This document shows, in pieces, positions 455 through 61,393 of a stretch of 64,000 nt of DNA. Each line of letters starts with the position of its first letter. Position 1 is the first letter of the stretch. The position numbers were made by a program, and so were the translations under genes. The notes below the pieces were generated by a model that saw only the letters and a program-made list of their open reading frames with translations, made no database searches and was not told the origin of the DNA. Source of the DNA: Candidatus Nealsonbacteria bacterium (GTDB lineage Bacteria > Patescibacteriota > Minisyncoccia > Minisyncoccales > RBG-13-36-15); the NCBI GenBank assembly GCA_011050465.1, contig DRFQ01000009.1, positions 64,334-128,333 on the forward strand, in the 5' to 3' direction.

Positions 455-464
455 TTAAATAAAC

Positions 465-496
465 AAAAAACCCGCAATATTCTTGCGGGTTTTTTG
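465..496. terminator. Bidirectional-looking intrinsic terminator
   Basis: aaaaaacccgcaatattcttgcgggtttttt: stem cccgca/tgcggg with an A-run before and a T-run after. Confidence 0.7.
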
Positions 497-532
497 TTTT
501 AGTAGCGTCCGTTCCAATAAAAACTCGTTAGG

Positions 533-586
533 CCCTCCCAGCCGAAGCACCGAGCACATAACATTTATGTGCTCGGTTTAGGAGGG
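533..586 (+). repeat. Nested GC-rich hairpin
   Basis: Outer stem ccctcc (533-538)/ggaggg (581-586). Inner 11-bp stem accgagcacat (549-559)/atgtgctcggt (567-577). Confidence 0.5.
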
Positions 587-638
587 CAGGAAGGCGGCCC
601 CGCACAAAAGCTAAGCCCGGCGCCAGATCCGAGCCCAG

Positions 639-728
639 CACCAGAGCGAAGCTCGGTGCTGGACCAGTCCCGAACTGAACTTCGTTCTAGTTCGGGGCTT
701 TATGCGGGGTAAATTTTTTGGTAGAATC
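639..728 (+). repeat. Family B intergenic cassette, copy 1 (hairpin 669-696, then ttttttggtagaat)
   Basis: Near-identical to 15091-15168 and 18091-18180. It ends in a TGnTAGAAT extended -10-like box 25 nt before the ATG at 754. Confidence 0.8.
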
Positions 729-14485: not shown

Positions 14486-15091
14486 ATGAATAAAATCTAT
14501 ATTTTTTTTATATTAATAATTTTAATTTTGGGGGGTTATTTTTTCATTGTCCAAAATAGGGGAGAGGAATCCATGGACCGTAATATTATAACTCCGCTCG
14601 ACACTAATATGATTGCGACAATGCAGACTAATTTTGGTGAGATTAAATTAGAGCTTTTCTCGTCTGATGCGCCAAAAACAGTCGAGAATTTCATTAAGCT
14701 TGCTGAGTCAGGTTTTTATGATGGCGTAAAATTCCACCGAGTGATTAAAGGGTTTATGATTCAAGGTGGCGATCCTCTCAGTAAAGACAATGCTTTGAAA
14801 GATAGATGGGGAACAGGGGGGCCCGGCTATACTTTCTCAGATGAAATCCACTCAAAGAACCGTAATGTTGTAGGCACCATTTCCATGGCCAATGCTGGAC
14901 CAAACACAAATGGCAGTCAGTTTTTTATCAATACTAATGATAATAACAGTCTCGATAACAAGCATACTGTTTTCGGTAAAGTAATAACAGGGATTGATAT
15001 CGTTGAAAATATTGAAAATGTAGCCACAGAAGGTCCGGACCGTCCGGTCGATGATGTAATTATCGAAAGTATTAAGATAACAAGCAACTAA
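14486..15091 (+). CDS. ppiB: Cyclophilin-type peptidyl-prolyl cis-trans isomerase with an N-terminal membrane anchor
   Basis: FHRVIKGFMIQGGDP, SMANAGPNTNGSQFFI and HTVFGKV motifs. N-terminal hydrophobic helix. Confidence 0.9.
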   Translation: MNKIYIFFILIILILGGYFFIVQNRGEESMDRNIITPLDTNMIATMQTNFGEIKLELFSSDAPKTVENFIKLAESGFYDGVKFHRVIKGFMIQGGDPLSKDNALKDRWGTGGPGYTFSDEIHSKNRNVVGTISMANAGPNTNGSQFFINTNDNNSLDNKHTVFGKVITGIDIVENIENVATEGPDRPVDDVIIESIKITSN

Positions 15092-15168
15092 GCACGGTGC
15101 TGAACCAGCCCCGAACTAGAACGAAGTTCAGTTCGGGGCTTTATGCGGGGTAAAGTTTTTGGTAAGAT
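15091..15168 (+). repeat. Family B intergenic cassette, copy 2 (hairpin 15109-15138 is inverted relative to copy 1)
   Basis: The flanks are colinear with copies 1 and 3. The central hairpin is the exact reverse complement of 669-696. The copy ends in tttttggtaagat, 23 nt before the ATG at 15192. Confidence 0.8.
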
Positions 15169-15191
15169 AGAAAGCAAAATTTTATTCTAAT

Positions 15192-15902
15192 ATGAATCAG
15201 AGAAAAAAAAGAAAATTTATTATTGCTTTGGGTGGATCAATTGCCTTTCCGGAAAAAATAAATACTTCCTTTCTTCGGAAGTTTTATCTGTTTATAAAAA
15301 AAGAAATTAAAAAAGGTAATAAATTTATTATTGTGTGCGGAGGAGGGAAGATTACCAGAAAATATCAGAAGGCTGCTTCAAACATAACGAAAGTTTTAGA
15401 TGAGGACAAGGATTGGCTGGGAATTCATGCTACTCGCCTCAATGCCCATTTTTTAAGAACATTATTTAGAAAGGAAAGTAATGAGGTTGTTTTTGACAAT
15501 CGCTTTAAGCTTAAAGGGTTCGGAAGATACTCAATAATAATTGGATCTGGGTGGGAGCCAGGTTGGTCAACTGATTTTGTTGCTATTCAAATTGCCGGAG
15601 ATTTTAAGATTGACCATGTTATAATTTTAGGGAAACCCGCCTATGTTTACACCGCTGATTTTGAAAAAGACAGGAAAGCACGACCTATTAAGAGATTGAC
15701 CTGGAAAGATTATTGTCAACTTATTCCTTCTGACTGGAAGCCGGGCCTTAATACTCCGGTTGATCCTATGGCAGCAAGGCTGGCGGAGAGAAAAAATATT
15801 AAGGTTATTGTGGCCAATGGGAAAGATTTAAATAATCTGGGAAAGATTTTAAAAGGCGAGGAATTCGAAGGAACTATTTTATCTCGGCAGTCAGATATAT
15901 AA
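15192..15902 (+). CDS. pyrH: Amino-acid-kinase-fold UMP kinase, archaeal-like type
   Basis: The sequence IIALGGSI ... IVCGGG ... G.EPGWSTD is typical of the short archaeal-type uridylate kinase. Confidence 0.65.
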   Translation: MNQRKKRKFIIALGGSIAFPEKINTSFLRKFYLFIKKEIKKGNKFIIVCGGGKITRKYQKAASNITKVLDEDKDWLGIHATRLNAHFLRTLFRKESNEVVFDNRFKLKGFGRYSIIIGSGWEPGWSTDFVAIQIAGDFKIDHVIILGKPAYVYTADFEKDRKARPIKRLTWKDYCQLIPSDWKPGLNTPVDPMAARLAERKNIKVIVANGKDLNNLGKILKGEEFEGTILSRQSDI

Positions 15903-16123: not shown

Positions 16124-16203
16124 ATAAATCCATTCCAAATCGCCAAGAGGGCCTCGCCCGTAGGGCTATGGCTGAGAGCGGTTTTTTGATACAGTAAATT
16201 AAT

Positions 16204-17466
16204 ATGAAATACGACGTGGCAGTGATTGGAGGAGGTCCTGCCGGGATGATTGCGGCAGGAAGAGCAGGCGAGACAGGAGCCCGCGTTATTATAATTGAAA
16301 AAAATAATATTTTAGGCAAAAAACTTTTAATTACCGGAAAGGGCAGGTGCAACATCACTCAAGCCAAATTTGATGGCAAGGATTTAGCTGATAAATTTGG
16401 AAGAGAGGGCAGGTTTTTATTGTATGGATTTTCTGTTTTTGGGCCCAAACAAGTTGTTGATTTTTTTGAAAATTTAAAACTGAAAACAAAAATAGAAAGG
16501 GGTGGAAGAATTTTTCCAAAAAGCGACAAAGCGAGTGATGTTTTGCAGGTCTTGAGAAGCCGTCTGATTAAAAACGGAGTCAAAATATTAGCGGGCAAAA
16601 CGGTTAAAAAAATTATTAAAAAGAATAATAAAATAGGAGCTATTGTTTTAGAGAACGGAGAAGAAATTACTGCTGATAAATATATTATTGCAACCGGAGG
16701 AAAGTCATATCCAACCCTCGGATCTAGCGGAAACGGCTTTGGGTGGGCAGAAGATTTGGGACATACAATCGTAGAATTAAAGCCGGCATTGACTCCAATA
16801 AAAATAAAAGAAAGATGGCCGAAGCAGGCGCAGGGATTAAGTTTAAAAAATGTTTTAATAATCGTTTATCAAAACAATAAAAAGCAGGATAGTAGATTTG
16901 GAGAATTGCTTTTTGCTCATTTTGGAATAACCGGCCCGATTATTTTGGATGTCAGTAAAAAAGTTGGAGAGCTTTTAAATCCGCCGGCAGCCAGAGGAAA
17001 AGTTAAGATGACCCTGGATTTAAAACCAGCATTGGATTTTGAAAAACTAGACAAGAGATTGCAAAGAGATTTTATAAAATTTAAAAAGAAATTATTCAAG
17101 AATTCTTTGAATGATTTGCTTCCGAAAAAGCTTATAAATATTATCGTGAAGCTGTCTGGTATTGATGAAAATAAATTAGTTGATGAAATCACAAAAAACG
17201 AACGCCATAAATTAGTAAAATTACTAAAAGGAATGGAAATGACACCTGTGGAATTATTAGGATTTGATAAAGCAATAATCACTTCCGGGGGAGTTTCTTT
17301 AAAGGAAGTAGACGCTAAAACAATGAAATCCAAAATAATCGATAATTTATATTTTGCAGGCGAAATACTTAATCTTGATGGGCCTACGGGAGGGTATAAT
17401 TTGCAGGTTTGTTGGAGTACGGGATATGTTGCAGGGAATTCCGCAACCAAGTTCTCTCGGCCGTAG
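16204..17466 (+). CDS. HI0933/YhiN-family NAD(FAD)-utilising flavoprotein
   Basis: N-terminal DVAVIGGGPAGMIAA dinucleotide fold, GKGRCN, and the C-terminal FAGEILNLDGPTGGYNLQ.CWSTG signature. Confidence 0.8.
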   Translation: MKYDVAVIGGGPAGMIAAGRAGETGARVIIIEKNNILGKKLLITGKGRCNITQAKFDGKDLADKFGREGRFLLYGFSVFGPKQVVDFFENLKLKTKIERGGRIFPKSDKASDVLQVLRSRLIKNGVKILAGKTVKKIIKKNNKIGAIVLENGEEITADKYIIATGGKSYPTLGSSGNGFGWAEDLGHTIVELKPALTPIKIKERWPKQAQGLSLKNVLIIVYQNNKKQDSRFGELLFAHFGITGPIILDVSKKVGELLNPPAARGKVKMTLDLKPALDFEKLDKRLQRDFIKFKKKLFKNSLNDLLPKKLINIIVKLSGIDENKLVDEITKNERHKLVKLLKGMEMTPVELLGFDKAIITSGGVSLKEVDAKTMKSKIIDNLYFAGEILNLDGPTGGYNLQVCWSTGYVAGNSATKFSRP

Positions 17467-17512
17467 GCCTATGGGCAAGGCGGACGGATACAGTAACTTT
17501 ATTCAAGGTCCC

Positions 17513-17548
17513 TAGTCAGCGTAGTATTGAGGCCGACCGAGAGGCCTA
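17513..17548 (+). repeat. Family D repeat copy (ctagtcagcgYagtatYgaggccgaccgagaggcc)
   Basis: Second copy at 23226-23262. Contains an aggcc/ggcct hairpin. Confidence 0.6.
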
Positions 17549-17659
17549 ATTGATAGAATAGCAGACACAAAAATCGCCAACCTGTCCGTTTGTGGAGGAG
17601 AATGTTTTCTCCGCCGTAACGCTATGAAGGCGGGTGGTTTTTTAGTATAATAAGGGAAT

Positions 17660-18067
17660 ATGGAAGAGAAAGAATCTTTAAAAATTATAGAGCCAAACCC
17701 CAAGCCCATTCGTTTATTTTTCTTTTGGGCCGGAATAATCGCCACCATCGCATATAGAATAATTATTATATTAAATTTGTATAGTCCTCTGTGGGTAAAG
17801 ATTGCCTGGTATATTGGCACCATTGGCTTTATTCTTTATTTTGGCCATCGTTTTAATATTGCCAGGAAAAAGGCAAAATTGATTCAAGATTATAAGCTGG
17901 TTGAAGCTATAGATAATTCTGATATTGATCCGCAAAAGAAGCTAGCCCTTCATTATCTGGCCAAAACCACGGTAACCTCAAAATCAAGATGGAACGCAGG
18001 AATTATCTTCATCTTCTCTTTTATAGCTTTACTCATAGGTATTTTCATGGATATCTATGGTATTTAA
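17660..18067 (+). CDS. Hypothetical integral membrane protein (135 aa)
   Basis: Three hydrophobic helices in a clean ORF preceded by tagtataat. Confidence 0.5.
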   Translation: MEEKESLKIIEPNPKPIRLFFFWAGIIATIAYRIIIILNLYSPLWVKIAWYIGTIGFILYFGHRFNIARKKAKLIQDYKLVEAIDNSDIDPQKKLALHYLAKTTVTSKSRWNAGIIFIFSFIALLIGIFMDIYGI

Positions 18068-18090: not shown

Positions 18091-18180
18091 GCACCAGAGC
18101 TGAGCACGGTGCTGGACCAGTCCCGAACTGAACTTCGTTCTAATCCGGGGCTTTATGCGGGGTAAATTTTTTGGTATAAT
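18091..18180 (+). repeat. Family B intergenic cassette, copy 3 (ends in ttttttggtataat)
   Basis: Near-identical to 639-728. The right arm of the hairpin is mutated (aatccgggg). A TGGTATAAT extended -10 lies 32 nt before the ATG at 18213. Confidence 0.8.
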
Positions 18181-18212
18181 GCAATAATGAAGCAAACAAG
18201 ATAAAAACAAAT

Positions 18213-18560
18213 ATGAAATTTTCTCTTAAAACAACCAATTTAGAATTAACTCCTGATCTTTCCAGTCATATTGAGACAACGATGAACAGTTTGGATAAAT
18301 TTATTGAGAATGCGGATTCAGTTGTCCGGGCCTGGGTGGAGATTGGTCGAATTTCTCAACACCATAGATCGGGAAAAATCTATCGAGCTGAAGTTCAGGT
18401 TCATTTACTCGGAAAATCAGTGCGTTCCGAAGCAGTAGCAAAGACAATTTTCCAGGCCATTAATGAGGTGAAAGACGAATTGCAGCGGGAATTAAAACAA
18501 TATAAAGGAAAAAAAATAGCCGAACGAAAAAGAGGAGGCAGAAGAAATTTAAAAAAGTAA
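18213..18560 (+). CDS. hpf: Ribosome hibernation-promoting factor / RaiA family
   Basis: The 115-aa sequence has the typical pattern MK....TNLELTP.L..HIE..... L.KF.. and ..AEV.V. Confidence 0.8.
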   Translation: MKFSLKTTNLELTPDLSSHIETTMNSLDKFIENADSVVRAWVEIGRISQHHRSGKIYRAEVQVHLLGKSVRSEAVAKTIFQAINEVKDELQRELKQYKGKKIAERKRGGRRNLKK

Positions 18561-18800: not shown

Positions 18801-18988
18801 TTTCAGATTGATGAACTATTTCCAATCCCTATTTGAGCGCGGTCTACTCCGAGTTTACCTGTGGTGAGCTTGTGGAATCCATCGGAGGGTTCGGAGAGAC
18901 TGAGCCGGGTCAGTCGACATTGAATCAATCTAGAGCCACCGCCCGAGAGCTGTCAGCCTTGGGTTTTGCTATTCTGATTTTAATAAAT

Positions 18989-19061
18989 AAGAGGATGGCT
19001 AAGGCCAAACCTCTTTTTTGTTTGTCTTGAGGCGGAAAGAATAGTAAAATAGTAGAAAGAT
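18989..19061 (+). promoter_or_regulatory. Family E terminator-plus-promoter module, copy 1
   Basis: Hairpin aagagg..cctctt plus a T-run, then TTGTCT (19022-19027), a 17-nt spacer and TAAAAT (19045-19050). Repeated at 31890-31963; the promoter half also occurs at 20678-20720. Confidence 0.6.
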
Positions 19062-19083: not shown

Positions 19084-20121
19084 ATGTCCTCTAATTTTAA
19101 AAAAGAAAAATTAAAATTAATTTTACTCAAAATGTCAAAGTTGGTTGAACCGACAATCAGAGAGCTTTTATCTTCCCGTCTTGATAAGAAAACTCAAGAG
19201 ATCTCTAATTATCAAATTTTGACTGGTGGGAAGAGATTAAGGCCAGCCCTAGCAATAATATCCTGCCAATTACTTGGCGGAAAGGTAAAAGACGTTTTAT
19301 ATCCGGCAGCCAGCTTGGAAATTCTCCACAATTATACTTTAATTGTTGATGATATGATAGATAATGGTGTTTTAAGAAGGGGAAGACCTACACTTTGGGT
19401 AAAATTTGGGCAATCTATTGCTCAATGTATAACCATCGATTATGCAGCCTTTCTCTTTCAAGGAGCAATAAGGTCAAGAGAGCCAATTAAAATTTCTGAG
19501 CTTTTAGCTGAGACAATACAAAAACTGGTAGATGGTGAAATTTTAGATATTTTATTTGAGCAGACAGGGAGAACTGAAGAGCCATATGTGGCAAAGAACA
19601 GATATAAAAAAATCACTGAAAAAGATTATTTAAAGATGGTCAGCAATAAAACAGCTTCTTTATTCCAGACCAGCTGTGAGATAGGTGGAATTTGCGCTGG
19701 GGCTAAAAAAGAAAAGATAAATGCACTCAAAAAATACGGATTTAATTTAGGGATGGCTTTTCAAATTCAAGATGATATTTTAGATATCTTTGGAGAAGAA
19801 AAAGCTTTTGGCAAAAAAGTAGGTAAGGACATTGAAGAAAGAAAAGGAGGAAACATAATCATTCTCTTTACATTAAAAGAGTTAAATTCGATTAATAAAA
19901 AGAAACTCTTAAAAATATTAAGAAAAAAAGGCAAAATAACTAAAAGAGATATCAAAGAAACGATAAGCTTAATTAAAAAAACTAATAGTTATCAAAAAGC
20001 CTCTTCTTTAGGAATAAGCTTCTCTCAAAGAGCTAAAAATGCTTTGAGAAATTTGCCTCAAAATGAATGGAATATTATCTTAAAGAACCTGGCAGATTTT
20101 ACTGTTGTGAGAGAAAAATAA
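19084..20121 (+). CDS. Polyprenyl diphosphate synthase (GGPP/short-chain type)
   Basis: First Asp-rich motif LIVDDMIDN and second FQIQDDILD, plus GKRLRP. Confidence 0.9.
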   Translation: MSSNFKKEKLKLILLKMSKLVEPTIRELLSSRLDKKTQEISNYQILTGGKRLRPALAIISCQLLGGKVKDVLYPAASLEILHNYTLIVDDMIDNGVLRRGRPTLWVKFGQSIAQCITIDYAAFLFQGAIRSREPIKISELLAETIQKLVDGEILDILFEQTGRTEEPYVAKNRYKKITEKDYLKMVSNKTASLFQTSCEIGGICAGAKKEKINALKKYGFNLGMAFQIQDDILDIFGEEKAFGKKVGKDIEERKGGNIIILFTLKELNSINKKKLLKILRKKGKITKRDIKETISLIKKTNSYQKASSLGISFSQRAKNALRNLPQNEWNIILKNLADFTVVREK

Positions 20122-20647: not shown

Positions 20648-20677
20648 AATGATTTTTGGTGCCTTTGGCGAAGCTTT

Positions 20678-20720
20678 ATTTGTCTTAAACCGAAAATGGT
20701 AGTAAAATAGTAGAAAGATT
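20678..20720 (+). promoter_or_regulatory. Family E promoter half, copy 3
   Basis: TTGTCT (20680-20685), a 17-nt spacer, TAAAAT (20703-20708), then agtagaaagatt directly abutting the ATG, as at 31964. Confidence 0.55.
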
Positions 20721-20939
20721 ATGGATTTCCAAGAAATTCAAAAAAAAGTTGTTGAGAACGTTTTCAATTATGGTAAAAAATACAATGTTGAGATTGACGA
20801 GGACTTTGTATTATTTAAGCTATATGAAGAAGTAGGGGAGTTGGCACAGTCCGTTTTAATCCACAGAAAGAAGTGTAGGCCCGAGAAATACCTTTCAGAT
20901 GAAAAATCAAAAGAAGAATTAGCACACTGTTTAATTTAG
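20721..20939 (+). pseudogene. MazG-like nucleotide pyrophosphohydrolase, C-terminally truncated fragment
   Basis: The KLYEEVGELAQ motif (the EExxE metal site of MazG-type all-alpha NTP-PPases) is present. The ORF stops at ELAHCLI, where the second helix pair should continue. Confidence 0.5.
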
Positions 20940-21884: not shown

Positions 21885-22885
21885 ATACACACTTTTGGCG
21901 GTTTGGTTAGTTAATAATTTTAAGCATTTGATTCGGCGTCTTTCCGTTAAGTCCGCAATGTTTTGTGTCGTTGTATTCCATATTCCACAATCTTAATTTG
22001 TATCTTAGATCTTCGAAAGATTTAAATTCAGTTTCATCATAGAATTTCTCTTGATCTTCTCTGTGAGATCTCTCTACAAAACTGTTCTGCCGGGGTTTGC
22101 CCGGGTCAATCAAATGGTGGGGTATGCCCAATTCCTGGCAGAGTATATCGAAGGGGTGCAGCCTCGGGTTTAAAGGGTCTGTGCTTTTATTATATCCTGT
22201 ATACCTGTTGGTGAAACAAGAAGTATTATCTGTCTTAATTGCTTTAATTTCAAAGTTGGCAATGGCTATTAGTTCTCTCAAAAACCTTATCGCGCTGAGA
22301 TTGGAAGCATCCTCGTATGCTTGCAAATACCTCCACCTTGAGCCGCAATCTATGGCTGTAAATTGATAATATCTCTGCCCTTTTATCTTATCTGGAACAT
22401 ATTTTACATCAATCTTTACCAGCTCACCCTTCTTTAAAGGAATTCTAACATATTTGTATTTAATCTTCCTTGTCCTGTATTTTCTGGTCAGTCCTTCATT
22501 TTTAATTATCTTCTGGATAGTTTGGTAATGTATGTTTATTCCTTCTTCCCCTAAGTCTCACTGCACTTTCAAGGCGCATTGCTTTTTCTCTTTTCTCAAT
22601 TCAATAATTCTTTCCTTTATCCTGATGGGCGTTTCTTTGGGATTTGTTTTGGGCCTTGTAGATTTCGGTTCCAATCCCTCCTCTCCGTATATCTTGTAGT
22701 TATGCAGCCACCTTTCTAATGTTCTTTTAGCGGTAGGGACACATTTTGGCGGCGTTCGTAATGCTTACTTCTTTGTTCAAAATGGGCAATATCCATCTTA
22801 ACCGTTTCTCTTTAATTGTTTTGGCCATATTTACACACATATACCGAAACTATATCAGCTTCGGTAAAACCCGCCATATGTGTAT
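21885..22885 (-). mobile_element. Decayed IS481-family-like insertion sequence (about 1 kb)
   Basis: Imperfect terminal inverted repeats: atacacacttttggcggttt (21885-21904) versus the reverse complement of aaacccgccatatgtgtat (22867-22885). They enclose an rve-type transposase reading frame. Confidence 0.6.
21907..22828 (-). pseudogene. IS481-like DDE (rve) transposase, disrupted
   Basis: The N-terminal HTH part MAKTIKEKRLRWILPILNKEVSITNAAKMCPY is followed by a frameshift. An in-frame TGA follows (ALKVQ*DLGEEG). The frame then continues YYQFTAIDCGSRWRYLQAYEDAS into the 139-aa ORF, which carries IKTDN and VERSHRED. Confidence 0.7.
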
Positions 22886-23225: not shown

Positions 23226-23262
23226 CTAGTCAGCGCAGTATCGAGGCCGACCGAGAGGCCTT
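23226..23262 (+). repeat. Family D repeat copy
   Basis: tagtcagcgcagtatcgaggccgaccgagaggcc matches 17513-17548. Confidence 0.6.
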
Positions 23263-31390: not shown

Positions 31391-31425
31391 GGGTAGTCGT
31401 CTTTGAACGATTACCCCTTTTTATT
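31391..31425 (+). terminator. Intrinsic terminator
   Basis: Stem gggtagtcg/cgattaccc followed by ctttttatttt. Confidence 0.65.
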
Positions 31426-31451
31426 TTGTAAATTTCTGATATAATTTGGTT

Positions 31452-31853
31452 ATGAGATGCTTGTTTTGCAACATAATTAAAGGTCAGAAGGAAGCGTTCA
31501 AGGTTTGGGAAAACCGTGATTTTATATTGTTTCTTGATGTAAAACCAATCAATCCTGGCCACGTCATTCTTATTACCAAAAAATACATAAGGGATGTATT
31601 TTCTGTACCAGAACCGTTGTACGGCAGAATGTTTCAAACAGTGAAGAGAATTGCTCGAGTGTTGAAAAAACTCACATCAGCGAAACGCATCGGGCTAGCA
31701 ATTGAGGGTTTTGGAGCTCCACACGTCCACATCCACTTGGTACCTGTCAATAAAGGAAACGAACTTAACCCATTAAGAGCAAGGAAGGTTGCGGAGAAAA
31801 AGCTACGGAGTATGCAAAGTGAATTTGCCAGCCGCTTCAAAAGATTAAAGTAA
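31452..31853 (+). CDS. HIT (histidine triad) family nucleotide hydrolase/transferase
   Basis: HVHIHLVP triad and the N-terminal CLFCNII motif. The ATG lies only 6 nt after a TATAAT box (31440-31445), so the mRNA may be leaderless. Confidence 0.85.
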   Translation: MRCLFCNIIKGQKEAFKVWENRDFILFLDVKPINPGHVILITKKYIRDVFSVPEPLYGRMFQTVKRIARVLKKLTSAKRIGLAIEGFGAPHVHIHLVPVNKGNELNPLRARKVAEKKLRSMQSEFASRFKRLK

Positions 31854-31889
31854 AGACTTAGTTTTTCTTATTGGCGGATTTGTATAGAT

Positions 31890-31963
31890 AAGAGGATGGC
31901 TAAGGCCAAACCTCTTTTTTGTTTGTCTTGAAACGGGAATAGTAGTAAAATAGTAGAAAGATT
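31890..31963 (+). promoter_or_regulatory. Family E terminator-plus-promoter module, copy 2
   Basis: Same hairpin and T-run as 18989. TTGTCT (31923-31928), a 17-nt spacer, TAAAAT (31946-31951), with the leader agtagaaagatt abutting the ATG at 31964. Confidence 0.6.
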
Positions 31964-50401: not shown

Positions 50402-51238
50402 ATGATTACCAGGAGATTTAGAAAACCTTACCGGATTAGAAAGAAAAAATCGATTTTACGCAATCGATTTTTTTGGCTAGGCATTATAATCATTATTATT
50501 GCCGGAGCTATTTTTTATTTTTTATTTTTTTCAAAGACTTTCCAGATTAAACAAACTATTGTTACCGGCGAAGAAAAGGTCTCAGAAGAAAGTCTTAAAT
50601 TATTAATAGAAAAAAGGTTAGAAAATAGAATATTGTTTTTTAAGACAAGAAGCCTTTTCTTGGTTAACTTAAATGGAATAAAAGATGATATTTTAGATAA
50701 CTTTCCCCAGATAGCAGAAGTTAAAGTCAGTCAAAGTTTCCCTGATACTATTAATATTATTGTAGTAGAAAGATTGGATTTGGCAATTTGGTGCCAAACA
50801 GAACATTGTTTTTTACTTGATAGAAAAGGAATAATTTTTGACTTAGTTAGAAATGACATTTCTACTGAATCTGAGAAGGTTCCGGGCGAAATTGTTTTGA
50901 CAAAGATTATAGACAGAAGAGATATAAGTTCTTTTAATTTGGGAGATCAAATCATTGAAGAAGATGTTTTAGTATCGATTCTCGACATTAAAAAACACAT
51001 AAAAGGAAATCTTGAAATAGAAATAGAAGAGTTTGTTATTCTTAATCCAGGAAGGTTGAACGTTAAAACCGCCGAAGGCTGGGAGATTTATTTTGATCTT
51101 CAAAAGGATATCTCCTGGCAGCTGACAAAATTAAATTTGGTTTTAAAAGAAGAAATCCCCCCGGAAGAAAGAGGGAATTTAGATTATATCGAGCTAAGGT
51201 TCACCAGGGTCTACTATAAATATAAAGCAGGAGATTAA
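50402..51238 (+). CDS. ftsQ: Cell division protein FtsQ/DivIB
   Basis: Basic N-terminus, TM helix, POTRA (I..I.V.G......I), and position after the mur/fem genes. Confidence 0.75.
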   Translation: MITRRFRKPYRIRKKKSILRNRFFWLGIIIIIIAGAIFYFLFFSKTFQIKQTIVTGEEKVSEESLKLLIEKRLENRILFFKTRSLFLVNLNGIKDDILDNFPQIAEVKVSQSFPDTINIIVVERLDLAIWCQTEHCFLLDRKGIIFDLVRNDISTESEKVPGEIVLTKIIDRRDISSFNLGDQIIEEDVLVSILDIKKHIKGNLEIEIEEFVILNPGRLNVKTAEGWEIYFDLQKDISWQLTKLNLVLKEEIPPEERGNLDYIELRFTRVYYKYKAGD

Positions 51239-53118
51239 TCAATATAATATACGAAAATTGAGTAGCCGATTTTTTTTATAAGTTTGTATTTATCAAGCCA
51301 GAGATAATATCCTACAGGTTGGTCAAAGCCATAAGCTGGTTGGCCTTTTCCTCCCTGCAAAAGAGTAACAGATACCGCCAGATAGCTTCCCTTGGGAAGC
51401 TTTTTTGGATTCCACCTCCCCTGCCAGGGCCTAAATCTTTTGCCCAAATAATACGTTGTATCTCCTCCACCGAAATAATCAACGTAAATTTCATTAATTC
51501 CTTCTTTTTCTATCCACGTTTTTAATCTCTTTAAATCCTGGCCCCAGTCTAGATTGGAATCAACAGCATAAGTATGGCCATTATTTGGCCCGCCGACTGT
51601 TTCATTGAAATAAGAAAGAAAATGAGGATAAGTTTTTATAACCGAAACAGCCTGCCAGAGAATTAAAATAATTAAAATTGAGTATTTAATAAGTTTGAAC
51701 AGGCGATTTCTTTCTGTTTTTAATAAAACAATGATCCCGCCGCCGACCAGAATATAAACAAAAGGAAAGGTGGGAAGCAGGTGTCGGACGCCAATGTTTA
51801 AGTTGCTGCTTAAACTTGTTCCCCAATATATCAGAAGCCAAACCAAGAAAACAAATTCAGTGAAGTGATCTTTTATCCAATTTCTAAGACGGGAAAGAGT
51901 TTGCCTCCAGGACATTCGGCTGAGCCCTTCGGCAGTGAGCTCAGGACGAACCTGCTCAGTCGAAGCCAAAAGCCTCTTTATTGAGTAAGCGACGAAAAGC
52001 AAAGTTATCAAAGTTAAAATATGAAAAGCCAAGGGTTCCTTAATAATATAAACAATAGGGAAGTATTGAATCCAGCCTGCAGCTGAAATTTCTCCTAAAA
52101 AGTAAGTAGTATTACCGCCGGCCGCCCTTCCTGTAGCCATAAAAACACCTAAAAAATAATGACTCCAAGGCTTTAGAATCGGACGTTCTGCCATCCAACC
52201 GACAATTTCTGCGGGAGTCCCCAGTTTCAAGGGAAGATTAGGCAAAATATTATTAAGGGGATGGTCTTTTAAAAACTCTTGAGCATAATCTTCTATCTTT
52301 TCTGTGGGTAAGTTTAAAACATGATATTGGTATACAGGCCAGATTAAAAGAAAAGCAATGATAAAAACCAGAATAATCTTTACACCATAAGAGAAAAATT
52401 GTTTAATTTTTTCTTTCTCAACTTTAAATATTATCCAAAGAAAGAAGATAATGATAAAAAGAGGAAAGAGAAGGATTAAAGAGAATTTTAAAAGTTGAGC
52501 TATTGCAAAAGCAATACCAGCTAAAATAATATTCTTATAAGTAGGGGTTTTTAAGAATTTTAGAAAGTAGTAAATACCCAGAACTGCTCCGGCCGCCGCG
52601 GCGACATCTGTGGTGACCAATCTGCCGTGAGCGAGAAAATTAGGTGAGAAAACAAACAGAAACAAGGACAGAAGCGCAGCCTTGTTTCCAAAAAGTTTTC
52701 TTGTCCAGAGGAAGATAAACCATCCTAAAAATATCAATAATAAAATCATGGGCAGCCTCGACCAGAATAAGATTTGGTCAGGATCGTTGCCTGAACGGTA
52801 TAAAAATTGATAGGCAAAATCGAATTGATGCCACCAGACAGGTTTCTCGTCTTGAATCCAAGATGAATCATCTTTTGGGAAATTAAGATTTAGAAACAGA
52901 AGCGGGATAGCAGCAAGGTCTTTGATTAATGGGGGATGCTCCGGATTAAGCCTCATATCCTTTTGAGTTAGATAGGAATAGCCAGCTGAGACATGGGCAG
53001 TTTCGTCAAAAGTAAAAGAATCCTCGAGTATACTGAAAATAGCCATCAAGAACATAGATAGAAGCAATATTCCAGCGATAATATAGGTCAAGTCATTTGG
53101 AGACCTCAATTTTGACAT
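51235..53118 (-). CDS. GT39/PMT_2-type phospholipid-carrier-dependent glycosyltransferase
   Basis: FDETAHVSAGYSY ... NPEHPPLIKDL loop-1 motif in a polytopic membrane protein. Confidence 0.8.
   Translation of the reverse strand: MSKLRSPNDLTYIIAGILLLSMFLMAIFSILEDSFTFDETAHVSAGYSYLTQKDMRLNPEHPPLIKDLAAIPLLFLNLNFPKDDSSWIQDEKPVWWHQFDFAYQFLYRSGNDPDQILFWSRLPMILLLIFLGWFIFLWTRKLFGNKAALLSLFLFVFSPNFLAHGRLVTTDVAAAAGAVLGIYYFLKFLKTPTYKNIILAGIAFAIAQLLKFSLILLFPLFIIIFFLWIIFKVEKEKIKQFFSYGVKIILVFIIAFLLIWPVYQYHVLNLPTEKIEDYAQEFLKDHPLNNILPNLPLKLGTPAEIVGWMAERPILKPWSHYFLGVFMATGRAAGGNTTYFLGEISAAGWIQYFPIVYIIKEPLAFHILTLITLLFVAYSIKRLLASTEQVRPELTAEGLSRMSWRQTLSRLRNWIKDHFTEFVFLVWLLIYWGTSLSSNLNIGVRHLLPTFPFVYILVGGGIIVLLKTERNRLFKLIKYSILIILILWQAVSVIKTYPHFLSYFNETVGGPNNGHTYAVDSNLDWGQDLKRLKTWIEKEGINEIYVDYFGGGDTTYYLGKRFRPWQGRWNPKKLPKGSYLAVSVTLLQGGKGQPAYGFDQPVGYYLWLDKYKLIKKIGYSIFVYYID
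51907..51967 (+). repeat. Family A GC-rich element, in-frame intragenic copy
   Basis: The 61 nt are identical to 61325-61385. On the minus strand they encode ASTEQVRPELTAEGLSRMSW within the GT39 protein. Confidence 0.85.
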
Positions 53119-57744: not shown

Positions 57745-57768
57745 CGCTCAGCAACGAAGTCTCAAAGT

Positions 57769-57830
57769 ACCGACCCTCAAAATCCCAGGACATTCGGCTG
57801 AGCTCAGTCGAAGCCCGAGATTTTGGGGTC
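57769..57830 (+). repeat. Family A GC-rich element, short intergenic variant
   Basis: accgaccctcaaaatcccaggacattcggCTGAGCTCAGtcgaagcccgagatt. Stem gaccctcaaaatc/gattttggggtc. Confidence 0.8.
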
Positions 57831-61308: not shown

Positions 61309-61393
61309 ACCGACCCTCAAAATCCCAGGACATTCGGCTGAGCCCTTCGGCAGTGAGCTCAGGACGAACCTGCTCAGTCGAAGCCCGAGATTT
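61309..61393 (+). repeat. Family A GC-rich element, long intergenic variant
   Basis: Its ends match 57769-57822, with 30 extra nt between CTGAGC and TCAGTCGA. The core is identical to 51907-51967. Confidence 0.85.

Follow-up and report, generated by a model that had tools for sequence, protein, structure and literature searches.

Promoter-coupled terminators place a terminator stem-loop and its T-tract against the -10 element between tandem genes, with the stem overlapping the -35 region and a termination site ~10 bp upstream of the start site. A T-tract abutting the -10 hexamer is common in diverse bacteria, and both the T-tract, which enhances the promoter, and the stem DNA contribute to promoter activity (Fletcher, Grainger et al., bioRxiv 10.64898/2026.08.19.745784). 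Here, we describe a GC-rich intergenic cassette with this layout, for which a T-tract is present upstream of the -10 box between tandem genes in all copies. Copy 1, with its outer helix, TAAA, T6, and TGGTAGAAT, shares the promoter-coupled terminator geometry, which also recurs in many intergenic regions that are not repeated, both in this genome and in those of its relatives. Promoter-coupled terminators are, however, an architecture and not a repeat family, whereas here one instance appears to have been copied to three genes. The cassette also differs in that two copies have a stem lacking its 5' arm, and the stem of copy 1 is multi-branched and separated by 4 nt from the T-tract; a stem-loop adjacent to the T-tract is seen in copy 1 and in a metagenomic relative (L009), and copies 2 and 3 are without the partner strand. 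The reading we favor, with a probability of about 0.55, is that a single intergenic cassette of a Parcubacteria (CPR) genome was duplicated to give three paralogous copies, in which the promoter is the part under selection and the hairpins are relics.

Several families of small intergenic repeats share some of these features. Correia elements of Neisseria are 100- to 200-nt intergenic repeats lying upstream of genes, with sigma-70-type promoters, inversion, and RNA hairpins, but they carry terminal inverted repeats of 26 nt, duplicate a TA target, and exceed 100 copies per genome, features not seen here, and their sequences are unrelated to the cassette (PMC10969869). REP and BIME sequences of enterobacteria and pseudomonads (reviewed in PMC3184786) are GC-rich extragenic palindromes of 20 to 40 nt that occur in both orientations at gene ends, are clustered and modular, and sometimes act as terminators or mRNA stabilizers; REPs differ in that they number in the hundreds per genome, are linked to RAYT transposases, and lack a promoter, and no such copy number or gene is seen here. 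The palindromes of the cassette are GC-rich and found in both orientations (flipped in copy 2 and inverted in a second relative, L022), and the copy number within the ~84 kb searched is low. SPRITE elements are likewise low-copy, interspersed, and terminator-like (a long duplex plus a U-rich tract), lie near gene ends, and are nested with other repeats, but they are AT-rich, enriched between convergent genes, and devoid of a promoter, whereas the cassette is GC-rich despite the AT-rich background of the genome and is located between tandem genes, upstream of their starts. With regard to MITEs, the ends of the cassette (GCACCAG... and ...GGTAGAAT) are not inverted repeats and the flanks of the copies share nothing; three copies are present in the ~84 kb searched, and they are identical in strains that are themselves 99% identical.

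Copies, neighboring genes, and relatives

The window, by which we mean the whole 64,000-nt stretch of DNA analyzed, is 33 to 40% G+C with nearly all genes on the plus strand, and GC-rich intergenic hairpins stand out because the DNA is so low in G+C. Three plus-strand copies of the repeat are present, at 638-735 (copy 1), 15090-15175 (copy 2), and 18091-18188 (copy 3). The initial annotation had proposed such a three-copy repeat, and the copies are indeed alignable, on the same strand and where it had placed them, and constitute the top repeat family in the window (97 nt). The features of the three copies and of the DNA upstream of copy 1 are as follows.

463-497, plus strand: canonical intrinsic terminator of the 87-aa open reading frame, AAAAAACCCGCAA-tattc-TTGCGGGTTTTTT; fold -22.8 kcal/mol, found by pattern search
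534-590, plus strand: GC-rich hairpin domain upstream of copy 1, GGCCCTCC..CCGAGCACAT-loop-ATGTGCTCGG..GGAGGGC, aligning loosely with L009
598-611, plus strand: copy 1, 5' arm of the outer helix (CCCCGCACAAAAGC), paired with GCTTTATGCGGGG (697-709) in the minimum free energy structure
635-662, plus strand: copy 1, hairpin 1, CCAGCACC-A-GAGC gaa GCTC GGTGCTGG; -21.1 kcal/mol, intact here and in L022
666-699, plus strand: copy 1, hairpin 2, with an 11-bp lower stem, a 4-bp upper stem, and a bulged U; -20.6 kcal/mol
694-713, plus strand: copy 1, invariant 20-mer GGGGCTTTATGCGGGGTAAA, exact in all three window copies and in L009
714-719 and 719-727, plus strand: copy 1, T6 tract and then box TGGTAGAAT; helicase ATG at 754
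15090-15106, plus strand: copy 2, what is left of the 3' half of hairpin 1 (AAGCACGGTGCTGAACC), starting inside the cyclophilin stop codon; no hairpin possible
15107-15140, plus strand: copy 2, flipped hairpin 2, the reverse complement of 666-699, with a perfect 11-bp stem; -23.3 kcal/mol
15135-15154, 15156-15160, and 15160-15168, plus strand: copy 2, 20-mer, T5 tract, and box TGGTAAGAT; pyrH ATG at 15192
18091-18115, plus strand: copy 3, hairpin 1, 5'-truncated and starting GCACC, with a weakened inner stem; -9.3 kcal/mol
18119-18152, plus strand: copy 3, hairpin 2, with two mismatches in the 3' arm (AATCCGGGGCT); -12.3 kcal/mol
18147-18166, 18167-18172, and 18172-18180, plus strand: copy 3, 20-mer, T6 tract, and box TGGTATAAT; hpf ATG at 18213

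The 20-mer GGGGCTTTATGCGGGGTAAA occurs exactly at 694, 15135, and 18147, where shuffles of the 64-kb window lead us to expect 0.00 occurrences, and there is no further site with three or fewer mismatches in the 64 kb. Copies 1 and 3 are 92 to 94% identical across 86 to 97 nt, with few positions differing; copy 2 is only 69% identical in register because its 34-nt hairpin is flipped. A 98-nt HMM finds no fourth copy in the remainder of the window or in 10 kb of flanking DNA on each side, and the wider search that had been recommended, at this reach, returns the same three copies, all on the plus strand and upstream of starts, at a density of three per ~84 kb and all within 18 kb. Strains that are 99% identical overall carry identical copies, with no difference inside any of them, and this is uninformative because the divergence is too small. 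Unitig assemblies stop at window position 658, within the repeat. The window belongs to a 258,698-bp contig (JGI 3300005663 Ga0073582_100029), and its sequence is also present in GCA_011049515.1 and in marine-sediment assemblies.

The genes flanking all of the copies are tandem. Downstream are a UvrD/PD-(D/E)XK helicase-nuclease described as AddA-like (ATG 754), the amino-acid-kinase family UMP kinase encoded by pyrH (ATG 15192), and the S30AE/HPF protein encoded by hpf (ATG 18213), as assigned by Pfam, and their starts are 26, 23, and 32 nt past the box, in agreement with the 23- to 32-nt spacing reported previously for all three copies. We prefer ATG 754 as the helicase start, and not the TTG at 718 chosen by some gene callers, because in the protein that starts at this ATG the Pfam helicase domain already begins at residue 8. 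The copies had also been described as starting at or close to the stop codon of the upstream gene, and this is true of copy 2, which overlaps the cyclophilin stop (TAA, 15089-15091) as reported, and of copy 3, which begins 23 nt past the stop at 18065-18067, but not of copy 1, which lies 184 nt past the stop at 454. That stop belongs to an 87-aa open reading frame and is followed by the terminator at 463-497 and then by ~140 nt of GC-rich structured DNA. The closest named relatives of the UMP kinase are from Patescibacteria/Parcubacteria (67 to 74% identity). We also note an rve fragment near 21.9 kb, with no link to the repeat seen.

A metagenome scan yields three matches, of which only L009 is related; the other two are chance matches without hairpin and promoter context. 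L009 has the same layout before a different gene, with the -10 box TGATAGAAT, and its box, like those of the window copies (23 to 32 nt before the ATG), is on the sense strand, 20 nt before the ATG. It aligns with copy 1 well upstream of the points at which copies 2 and 3 start (AGGCGGCCCCGYACARAAGC, AGCCCAGCACCAGAGC) and, like copy 1, sits behind a separate canonical terminator. L022 was found through a protein search with the translated open antisense frame of the element, the match being a mis-called open reading frame (P0125). Its hairpin 1 is identical to that of copy 1 over 31 nt. Next come a second hairpin, TCCCGCACC-loop-GGTGCGGGG, and, immediately after it, a T-tract (AAATTTTTGGTA), with no -10 box (GGTAAAGCT). 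This second hairpin resembles hairpin 2, with a lower stem, an upper stem of 4 to 5 bp, and a bulged U on the 3' side. The L022 unit is oriented opposite to both flanking genes, and part of it encodes the C terminus of a small open reading frame. Random orientation of copies elsewhere had been named as the observation that would speak against a fixed terminator-plus-promoter cassette; the window copies and L009 are all in the sense orientation, but L022, inverted and boxless, does argue against such a fixed cassette.

Other searches yield no further relatives. A marginal protein-search match (L023, E = 9.7) was not accepted, and the only three matches to the 19-mer among 185,579 species genomes, all in Bacteroidota, were rejected because they are without hairpin context and ~4 are expected by chance. 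Two scans of viral contigs gave 0 matches. The orthologous pyrH loci of relatives are not syntenic and the element is absent from them, and the orthologous DUF218 locus of an 81%-identical relative (L018) has a plain terminator and no element; the closest relative of the DUF218 gene beside the L009 copy is present only on broken contigs.

Hairpins, nesting, and termination

The region 498-735 folds with -101.9 kcal/mol (z = -6.4). In copy 1, two hairpins lie within the outer helix, after which come T6 and then the -10 box. Its duplex energy of -21.6 kcal/mol is reached by 4 of 1,000 shuffles, and that of the corresponding helix in L009 (-20.5 kcal/mol) is matched by 6 of 1,000; both L009 changes in this helix convert a Watson-Crick pair to G.U on the plus strand. 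In copies 2 and 3 there is no partner for the outer-helix arm, with values of -8.5 and -9.0 kcal/mol that are within the shuffle range. The stem of the outer helix, CCCGCA/TGCGGG, is also that of the terminator at 463-497 (positions 471-489) and of the second hairpin of L022. The domain at 534-590 is less readily placed, and its inclusion in the repeat is uncertain; L009 does not share the structure of the 5' domain (z = -1.7).

Hairpin 2, initially given as 28 to 30 nt, is 34 nt long in copy 1 (666-699). The versions in copies 1 and 2 form an inverted pair of 34 nt with 97% complementarity, and both orientations yield the same two-part stem. In L009, hairpin 1 is gone and one arm of hairpin 2 is truncated. 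As to covariation, which the initial annotation had proposed as a check, hairpin 2 has, compared with L022, two compensatory pairs (A-U to C-G and U-A to C-G), and two pairs changed on both sides are reached by 15 of 500 shuffles. There is also a G.U-compatible change at 668/697 on the plus strand.

Copies 2 and 3 are 5'-truncated, the unit in copy 1 is longer than first described, and copies 2 and 3 probably descend from a nested full-length form because both keep an orphan 3' arm of the outer helix. We suggest that the basic unit, in the form seen in L022, would consist of hairpin 1, the terminator-type hairpin 2, and a T-tract, and that 598-719 would represent one such unit within the loop of a second hairpin-2-type stem (598-611 with 697-709). 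The T-tract after this outer stem would then run directly into the TGn-extended -10 hexamer, and the pyrH and hpf copies would derive from the nested form by loss of its 5' part. The combination of variable 5' ends and a common 3' end leads us to conjecture that copying occurs from a short shared promoter sequence, for example by ectopic gene conversion. The description of the repeat as duplicated is well founded, and 'portable' is fair in that same sense. That it is mobile is only suggested, by the varied gene contexts, the nesting, and the presence of both orientations, and against it are the lack of inverted ends and target duplications; neither these nor same-species empty sites were found.

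The terminator half of the proposed terminator-plus-promoter unit is weak, being plausible for copy 1, in which the outer helix lies near T6, but not for copies 2 and 3. The 34-nt hairpin 2 is followed by CTTTATG (CUUUAUG) and not by a U-tract, and T6 begins 14 nt past the 3' end of the hairpin; an intrinsic terminator, a stem-loop with a U-tract within 0 to 2 nt, is therefore not formed by hairpin 2. The outer helix, which only copy 1 and L009 have, fits this definition in part, stopping 4 nt short of T6, and together with the T-tract it would give copy 1 the geometry of a promoter-coupled terminator. A terminator role is nonetheless weakened for copy 1 and L009 because both are already behind a canonical terminator. 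Apart from the element, nothing between the preceding stop and the following promoter is structured in copies 2 and 3; the hairpin that is left there, without a U-tract, may slow read-through, although it falls outside the definition of an intrinsic terminator.

Promoter conservation and the wider intergenic architecture

The 3' ends of the copies had been read as TGn extended -10 elements, which consist of TG at -15/-14, one base, and a TAnnnT hexamer, and, as far as sequence can tell, this is supported: TGGTAGAAT, TGGTAAGAT, and TGGTATAAT all match TGnTAnnnT. Among the four homologous copies (the three in the window plus L009), the TG, the TA, and the final T are invariant, and the four substitutions in the 9-mer box are only at positions 3, 6, and 7. 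Sigma-70 promoters tolerate changes at the n positions of TGnTAnnnT, and by our own calculation the chance that all four substitutions fall at tolerated positions is ~(4/9)^4 = 0.04. The ~22 nt upstream (CGGGG through TAAA) do not differ among the four copies, and the T5-6 tract, which abuts TGnTAnnnT in all of them, has one change in copy 2 and one in L009. Hairpin 2 meanwhile decays from -20.6 and -23.3 kcal/mol in copies 1 and 2 to -12.3 kcal/mol in copy 3 and -8.5 kcal/mol in L009. Because the block and the box are kept while the hairpins decay, the promoter is presumably the selected part, and the conservation pattern appears to fit a promoter under selection and not a hairpin-dependent function.

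With the start site taken as 7 nt after the hexamer, the invariant block spans ~-41 to -21, TTTATG occupies -35 to -30, and the T-tract covers -20 to -15; the 20-mer of copy 1 (694-713), which takes in the 3' outer-helix arm (697-709), corresponds to ~-40 to -21 of the inferred promoter. As a -35 region, TTTATG agrees with TTGACA at only three of six positions, and extended -10 promoters usually need no -35 element. A housekeeping sigma-70-type RNA polymerase would start ~7 nt past the box, with upstream contacts supplied by the invariant block and the T-tract, and the predicted leaders are SD-less and ~17 to 26 nt long. The promoter would be the part kept by selection, and the upstream hairpins would be relics that at most dampen read-through from the preceding gene. 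Judged on sequence, the promoter reading appears well supported. The cassette may also, as initially proposed, put unrelated genes under a common signal. An extended -10 promoter would not need the invariance at -41 to -21, however, and this segment may have another function, such as that of a site for a bound protein.

Identity among the copies drops inside the -10 hexamer, so the box could be the resident promoter of each gene, with the repeat ending at the T-tract. In three Parcubacteria relatives (74 to 79% protein identity), pyrH is preceded by GGCGGTTTTTTGATAGAAT, GGTAGAAT, and GGCTTTTTGGTAGGAT, with unrelated upstream DNA and different neighbors, and each has a small GC hairpin, a T-tract, and TG(G/A)TAG(A/G)AT located 11 to 21 nt before the ATG. 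The same arrangement is present elsewhere in the window, as in GGTTTTTTGATACAGT at 16183 and GGTTTTTTAGTATAAT before 17660, and TTTTTGNTANNNT is found 11 times in the window versus 4.4 expected. Since this layout recurs at non-homologous sites and coupled terminators are common, the cassette is plausibly a copied instance of the normal intergenic architecture of the organism. Cassette copying is also not unique to this element, because a second repeated terminator-promoter-RBS cassette is present in the same window, at 18976-19061, 20675-20750, and 31877-31962. A scan with consensus promoters and terminators was uninformative (56 promoter-like sites versus 52 expected and 16 terminator-like sites versus 18 expected) and missed the boxes, the hairpins, and even the obvious terminator at 463-497.

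Alternative explanations and significance

It is possible, but unlikely, that the cassette is one of the small, selfish palindromic repeats, similar to REP, MITE, or SPRITE elements, and invades terminator hairpins and the ends of genes; the box would then be the resident promoter of each target gene or an accident, and the element would have no host function. The modular nested structure, with one unit within the loop of another, is consistent with this, as are the flipped hairpin of copy 2 and the range of contexts in both orientations: helicase, pyrH, hpf, the L009 gene, and, for L022, a small open reading frame plus a further gene. Copy 2 also supplies the cyclophilin stop, and the L022 unit forms the 3' end of the small open reading frame. 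Other GC-rich hairpin repeat families in the window, the plain terminator at the DUF218 locus of the 81%-identical relative, and the breaking of unitig assemblies at the repeat all point the same way. However, no terminal inverted repeats, target duplications, or linked transposase were seen, the copy number is very low (three in ~84 kb), and copies 2 and 3 did not insert independently but derive by truncation from one nested copy. Moreover, the promoter block is the best-kept part while the palindromes decay, the opposite of what hairpin-dependent transposition predicts.

A more ambitious proposal, which we regard as quite doubtful, and which the nested form of copy 1 and L009 and the simple form of L022 would suggest, is that of a CPR-specific self-propagating terminator-hairpin element that inserts into terminator loops, creates or carries promoter-coupled terminators because the upstream half of a promoter is formed by its T-tract and 3' arm, and spreads a promoter to hpf, pyrH, and the helicase-nuclease gene by 5'-truncated copying, possibly also carrying a regulator site (CGGGG-N7-CGGGG). 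If this were true, the second cassette (18976, 20675, and 31877) would be a product of the same process, and promoter dissemination by repeat duplication would be general in these streamlined genomes.

A shared operator is improbable. In this explanation, a regulator would bind either the invariant block, with its two CGGGG motifs 12 bp apart at ~-41 to -25, or the 11-bp arms of hairpin 2, and the helicase-nuclease, pyrH, and hpf genes would form one regulon. All four copies keep the 20- to 22-nt block unchanged even though a promoter of the extended -10 class should have no need of it, CGGGG-N7-CGGGG is found only at the three copies (3 versus 0.6 expected), and the hairpin flip leaves the palindromic arms unchanged; the preprint on promoter-coupled terminators also reports that terminator palindromes double as transcription factor sites (bioRxiv 10.64898/2026.08.19.745784). 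But the three copies are duplicates and hence not independent evidence, a stretch of 90 nt at more than 90% identity is far longer than a binding site would require, both copy 3 and L009 carry damage in the hairpin arms, and no regulator emerged as a candidate.

It is very unlikely that the cassette acts as a cis-acting RNA leader or attenuator transcribed from upstream, with the 5' arm CCCG(A/C)AC choosing as its partner either the near CGGGG, which gives a stable hairpin lacking a U-tract, or the far GCGGGG by the U-tract, which gives a terminator. The two alternative 3' partners followed by U6 would suit such a switch, and the plus-strand changes in the L009 outer helix and at 668/697 are G.U-compatible, but the near hairpin is much the more stable and no switch is apparent. 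Copies 2 and 3 are without the outer helix, the loop is reversed in copy 2, and the downstream genes are unrelated; little read-through RNA is expected at copy 1 and L009, since both are behind a canonical terminator. A 10-codon open reading frame (ATG 703 to TAA 735, MRGKFFGRIK*) might aid the choice, and its frame and stop are kept in copy 1, copy 3, and L009, with the copy 2 version ending 1 nt before the pyrH ATG. Its changes are, however, almost all non-synonymous (F to V/L, G to D, R to I/K, and K to Q/E/R), which makes a functional peptide unlikely as well. There is no Rfam match at gathering or permissive thresholds.

We give very little credence to the idea that copy 1 (~530-720) is a small RNA gene whose 3' part and terminator were duplicated by chance before two genes: the strong fold of 498-735 (z = -6.4), the closing helix followed by a U-run, and the location between a terminator and the next gene would be in keeping with it, but neither strand shows a promoter upstream of 530, no Rfam family corresponds to it, the 5' domain structure is not conserved in L009 (z = -1.7), and the truncated copies retain only the 3' end. 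Riboswitches, leaders, and small RNAs are as a class unlikely here. For the whole window, Rfam at gathering score returns only a tRNA-Lys, a permissive search of 440-780 gives only sub-threshold matches driven by the terminator at 463-497, and ARAGORN finds nothing at the copies. A group II intron domain V, SRP RNA, 6S RNA, an integron attC site, and an ECF-sigma promoter were considered and set aside, as their defining motifs or context are absent.

The repeat is real, and it is a fairly ordinary small intergenic repeat with regulatory signals, built on the promoter-coupled terminator layout, and not a new kind of system. To our knowledge, almost nothing is known experimentally about transcription signals in the Patescibacteria (CPR). 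The cassette copies, taken with the non-homologous pyrH look-alikes, suggest a promoter model for these bacteria, in which a T-tract and TGnTAnAAT are followed by a very short or SD-less leader, and the recently described coupling of promoters to terminators would extend to streamlined genomes. Whole promoter cassettes have evidently been copied between housekeeping genes. Were the copies inactive, they would be one more small intergenic repeat; if they are active, they would provide ready-made parts for CPR genetic tools.

A second cassette and other repeats

Besides the main repeat, the ~90-nt hairpin and extended -10 cassette, the window carries a second repeated cassette, in which a hairpin (AGAGG..CCTCT) is followed by T6, TTGTCT-17 nt-TAAAAT and then AGAAAGAT(T)ATG. 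This second cassette is a predicted terminator, promoter and ribosome-binding site, copied ahead of three unrelated genes. Two GC-rich repeats are also present.

18976-19061 and 31877-31962, second cassette, 86 nt, 91% identity; genes start at 19084 and 31964
20675-20750, third copy of the second cassette, 76% identity; gene starts at 20721
51907-51967 and 61325-61385, GC-rich long-hairpin repeat, 61 nt, 100% identical
57758-57823, third long-hairpin copy, without a 31-nt internal piece
17512-17547 and 23226-23261, 36-nt GC-rich repeat (CTAGTCAGCGYAGTATYGAGGCCGACCGAGAGGCCT), 94% identity

The long-hairpin repeat appears to be embedded in coding sequence, because its copy at 51907 falls within an intact 627-aa PMT-family ORF (51235-53118, minus strand). 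An extended -10 box, TGATAGAAT (17551-17559), lies 3 nt past the first copy of the 36-nt repeat, whereas none stands behind the copy at 23226-23261.

We note also that the minus strand carries a gene for an rve-family integrase (about 21900-22540; 13695-14495 in L002), called as 124 aa or 210 aa depending on the assembly and possibly a degraded IS. No link between this gene and the main repeat was found.

A short ORF and assembly breaks at the main repeat

A short ORF begins within the invariant block of the main repeat (ATGCGGGGTAAA...), its copy 1 product being MRGKFFGRIK*, and it is also present in L009, a metagenome contig with a related copy of the repeat.

703-735, copy 1
15144-15191, copy 2
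18156-18188, copy 3
L009 about 409-377, minus strand

Length and stop are equal in copy 1, copy 3 and L009, and the copy 2 ORF has 15 codons and ends 1 nt ahead of the pyrH ATG. Substitutions between copies are for the most part non-synonymous.

Four independent Logan unitigs carrying the 87-aa gene upstream of copy 1 (L029-L032) end at one common base, window 658, 20 nt into copy 1; it is the main repeat that breaks the assembly at this point. In the closest relative of the L009 locus (L019, L020 and L021), CCAATCCATTCGATAAACTYAGGATTG is tandemly duplicated past the DUF218 terminator (L019 800-934), and all three contigs stop in this region, which suggests that the spacer there is repeat-rich and variable.

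Predicted terminators and promoters close to start codons

An identical 22-nt stretch (AGGCGGTTTTTTGATAGA...), composed of a terminator arm, T-tract and extended -10 box, occurs in two different organisms with different genes behind it (L009 1906-1927 and L010 9959-9980), and the promoter-coupled terminator sequence itself seems to recur across the lineage. Many promoter boxes, in the window and in L010, L011 and L012, lie just 6-11 nt upstream of an ATG, as in TGATATAAT-ttggtt-ATG at window 31437.

Window 16150-16204, 17600-17660 and 31400-31452
L010 9950-10003
L011 1740-1803
L012 365-409

These short spacings suggest that leaderless or nearly leaderless mRNAs, together with terminator T-tracts abutting the -10 box, are common in this lineage of Parcubacteria.
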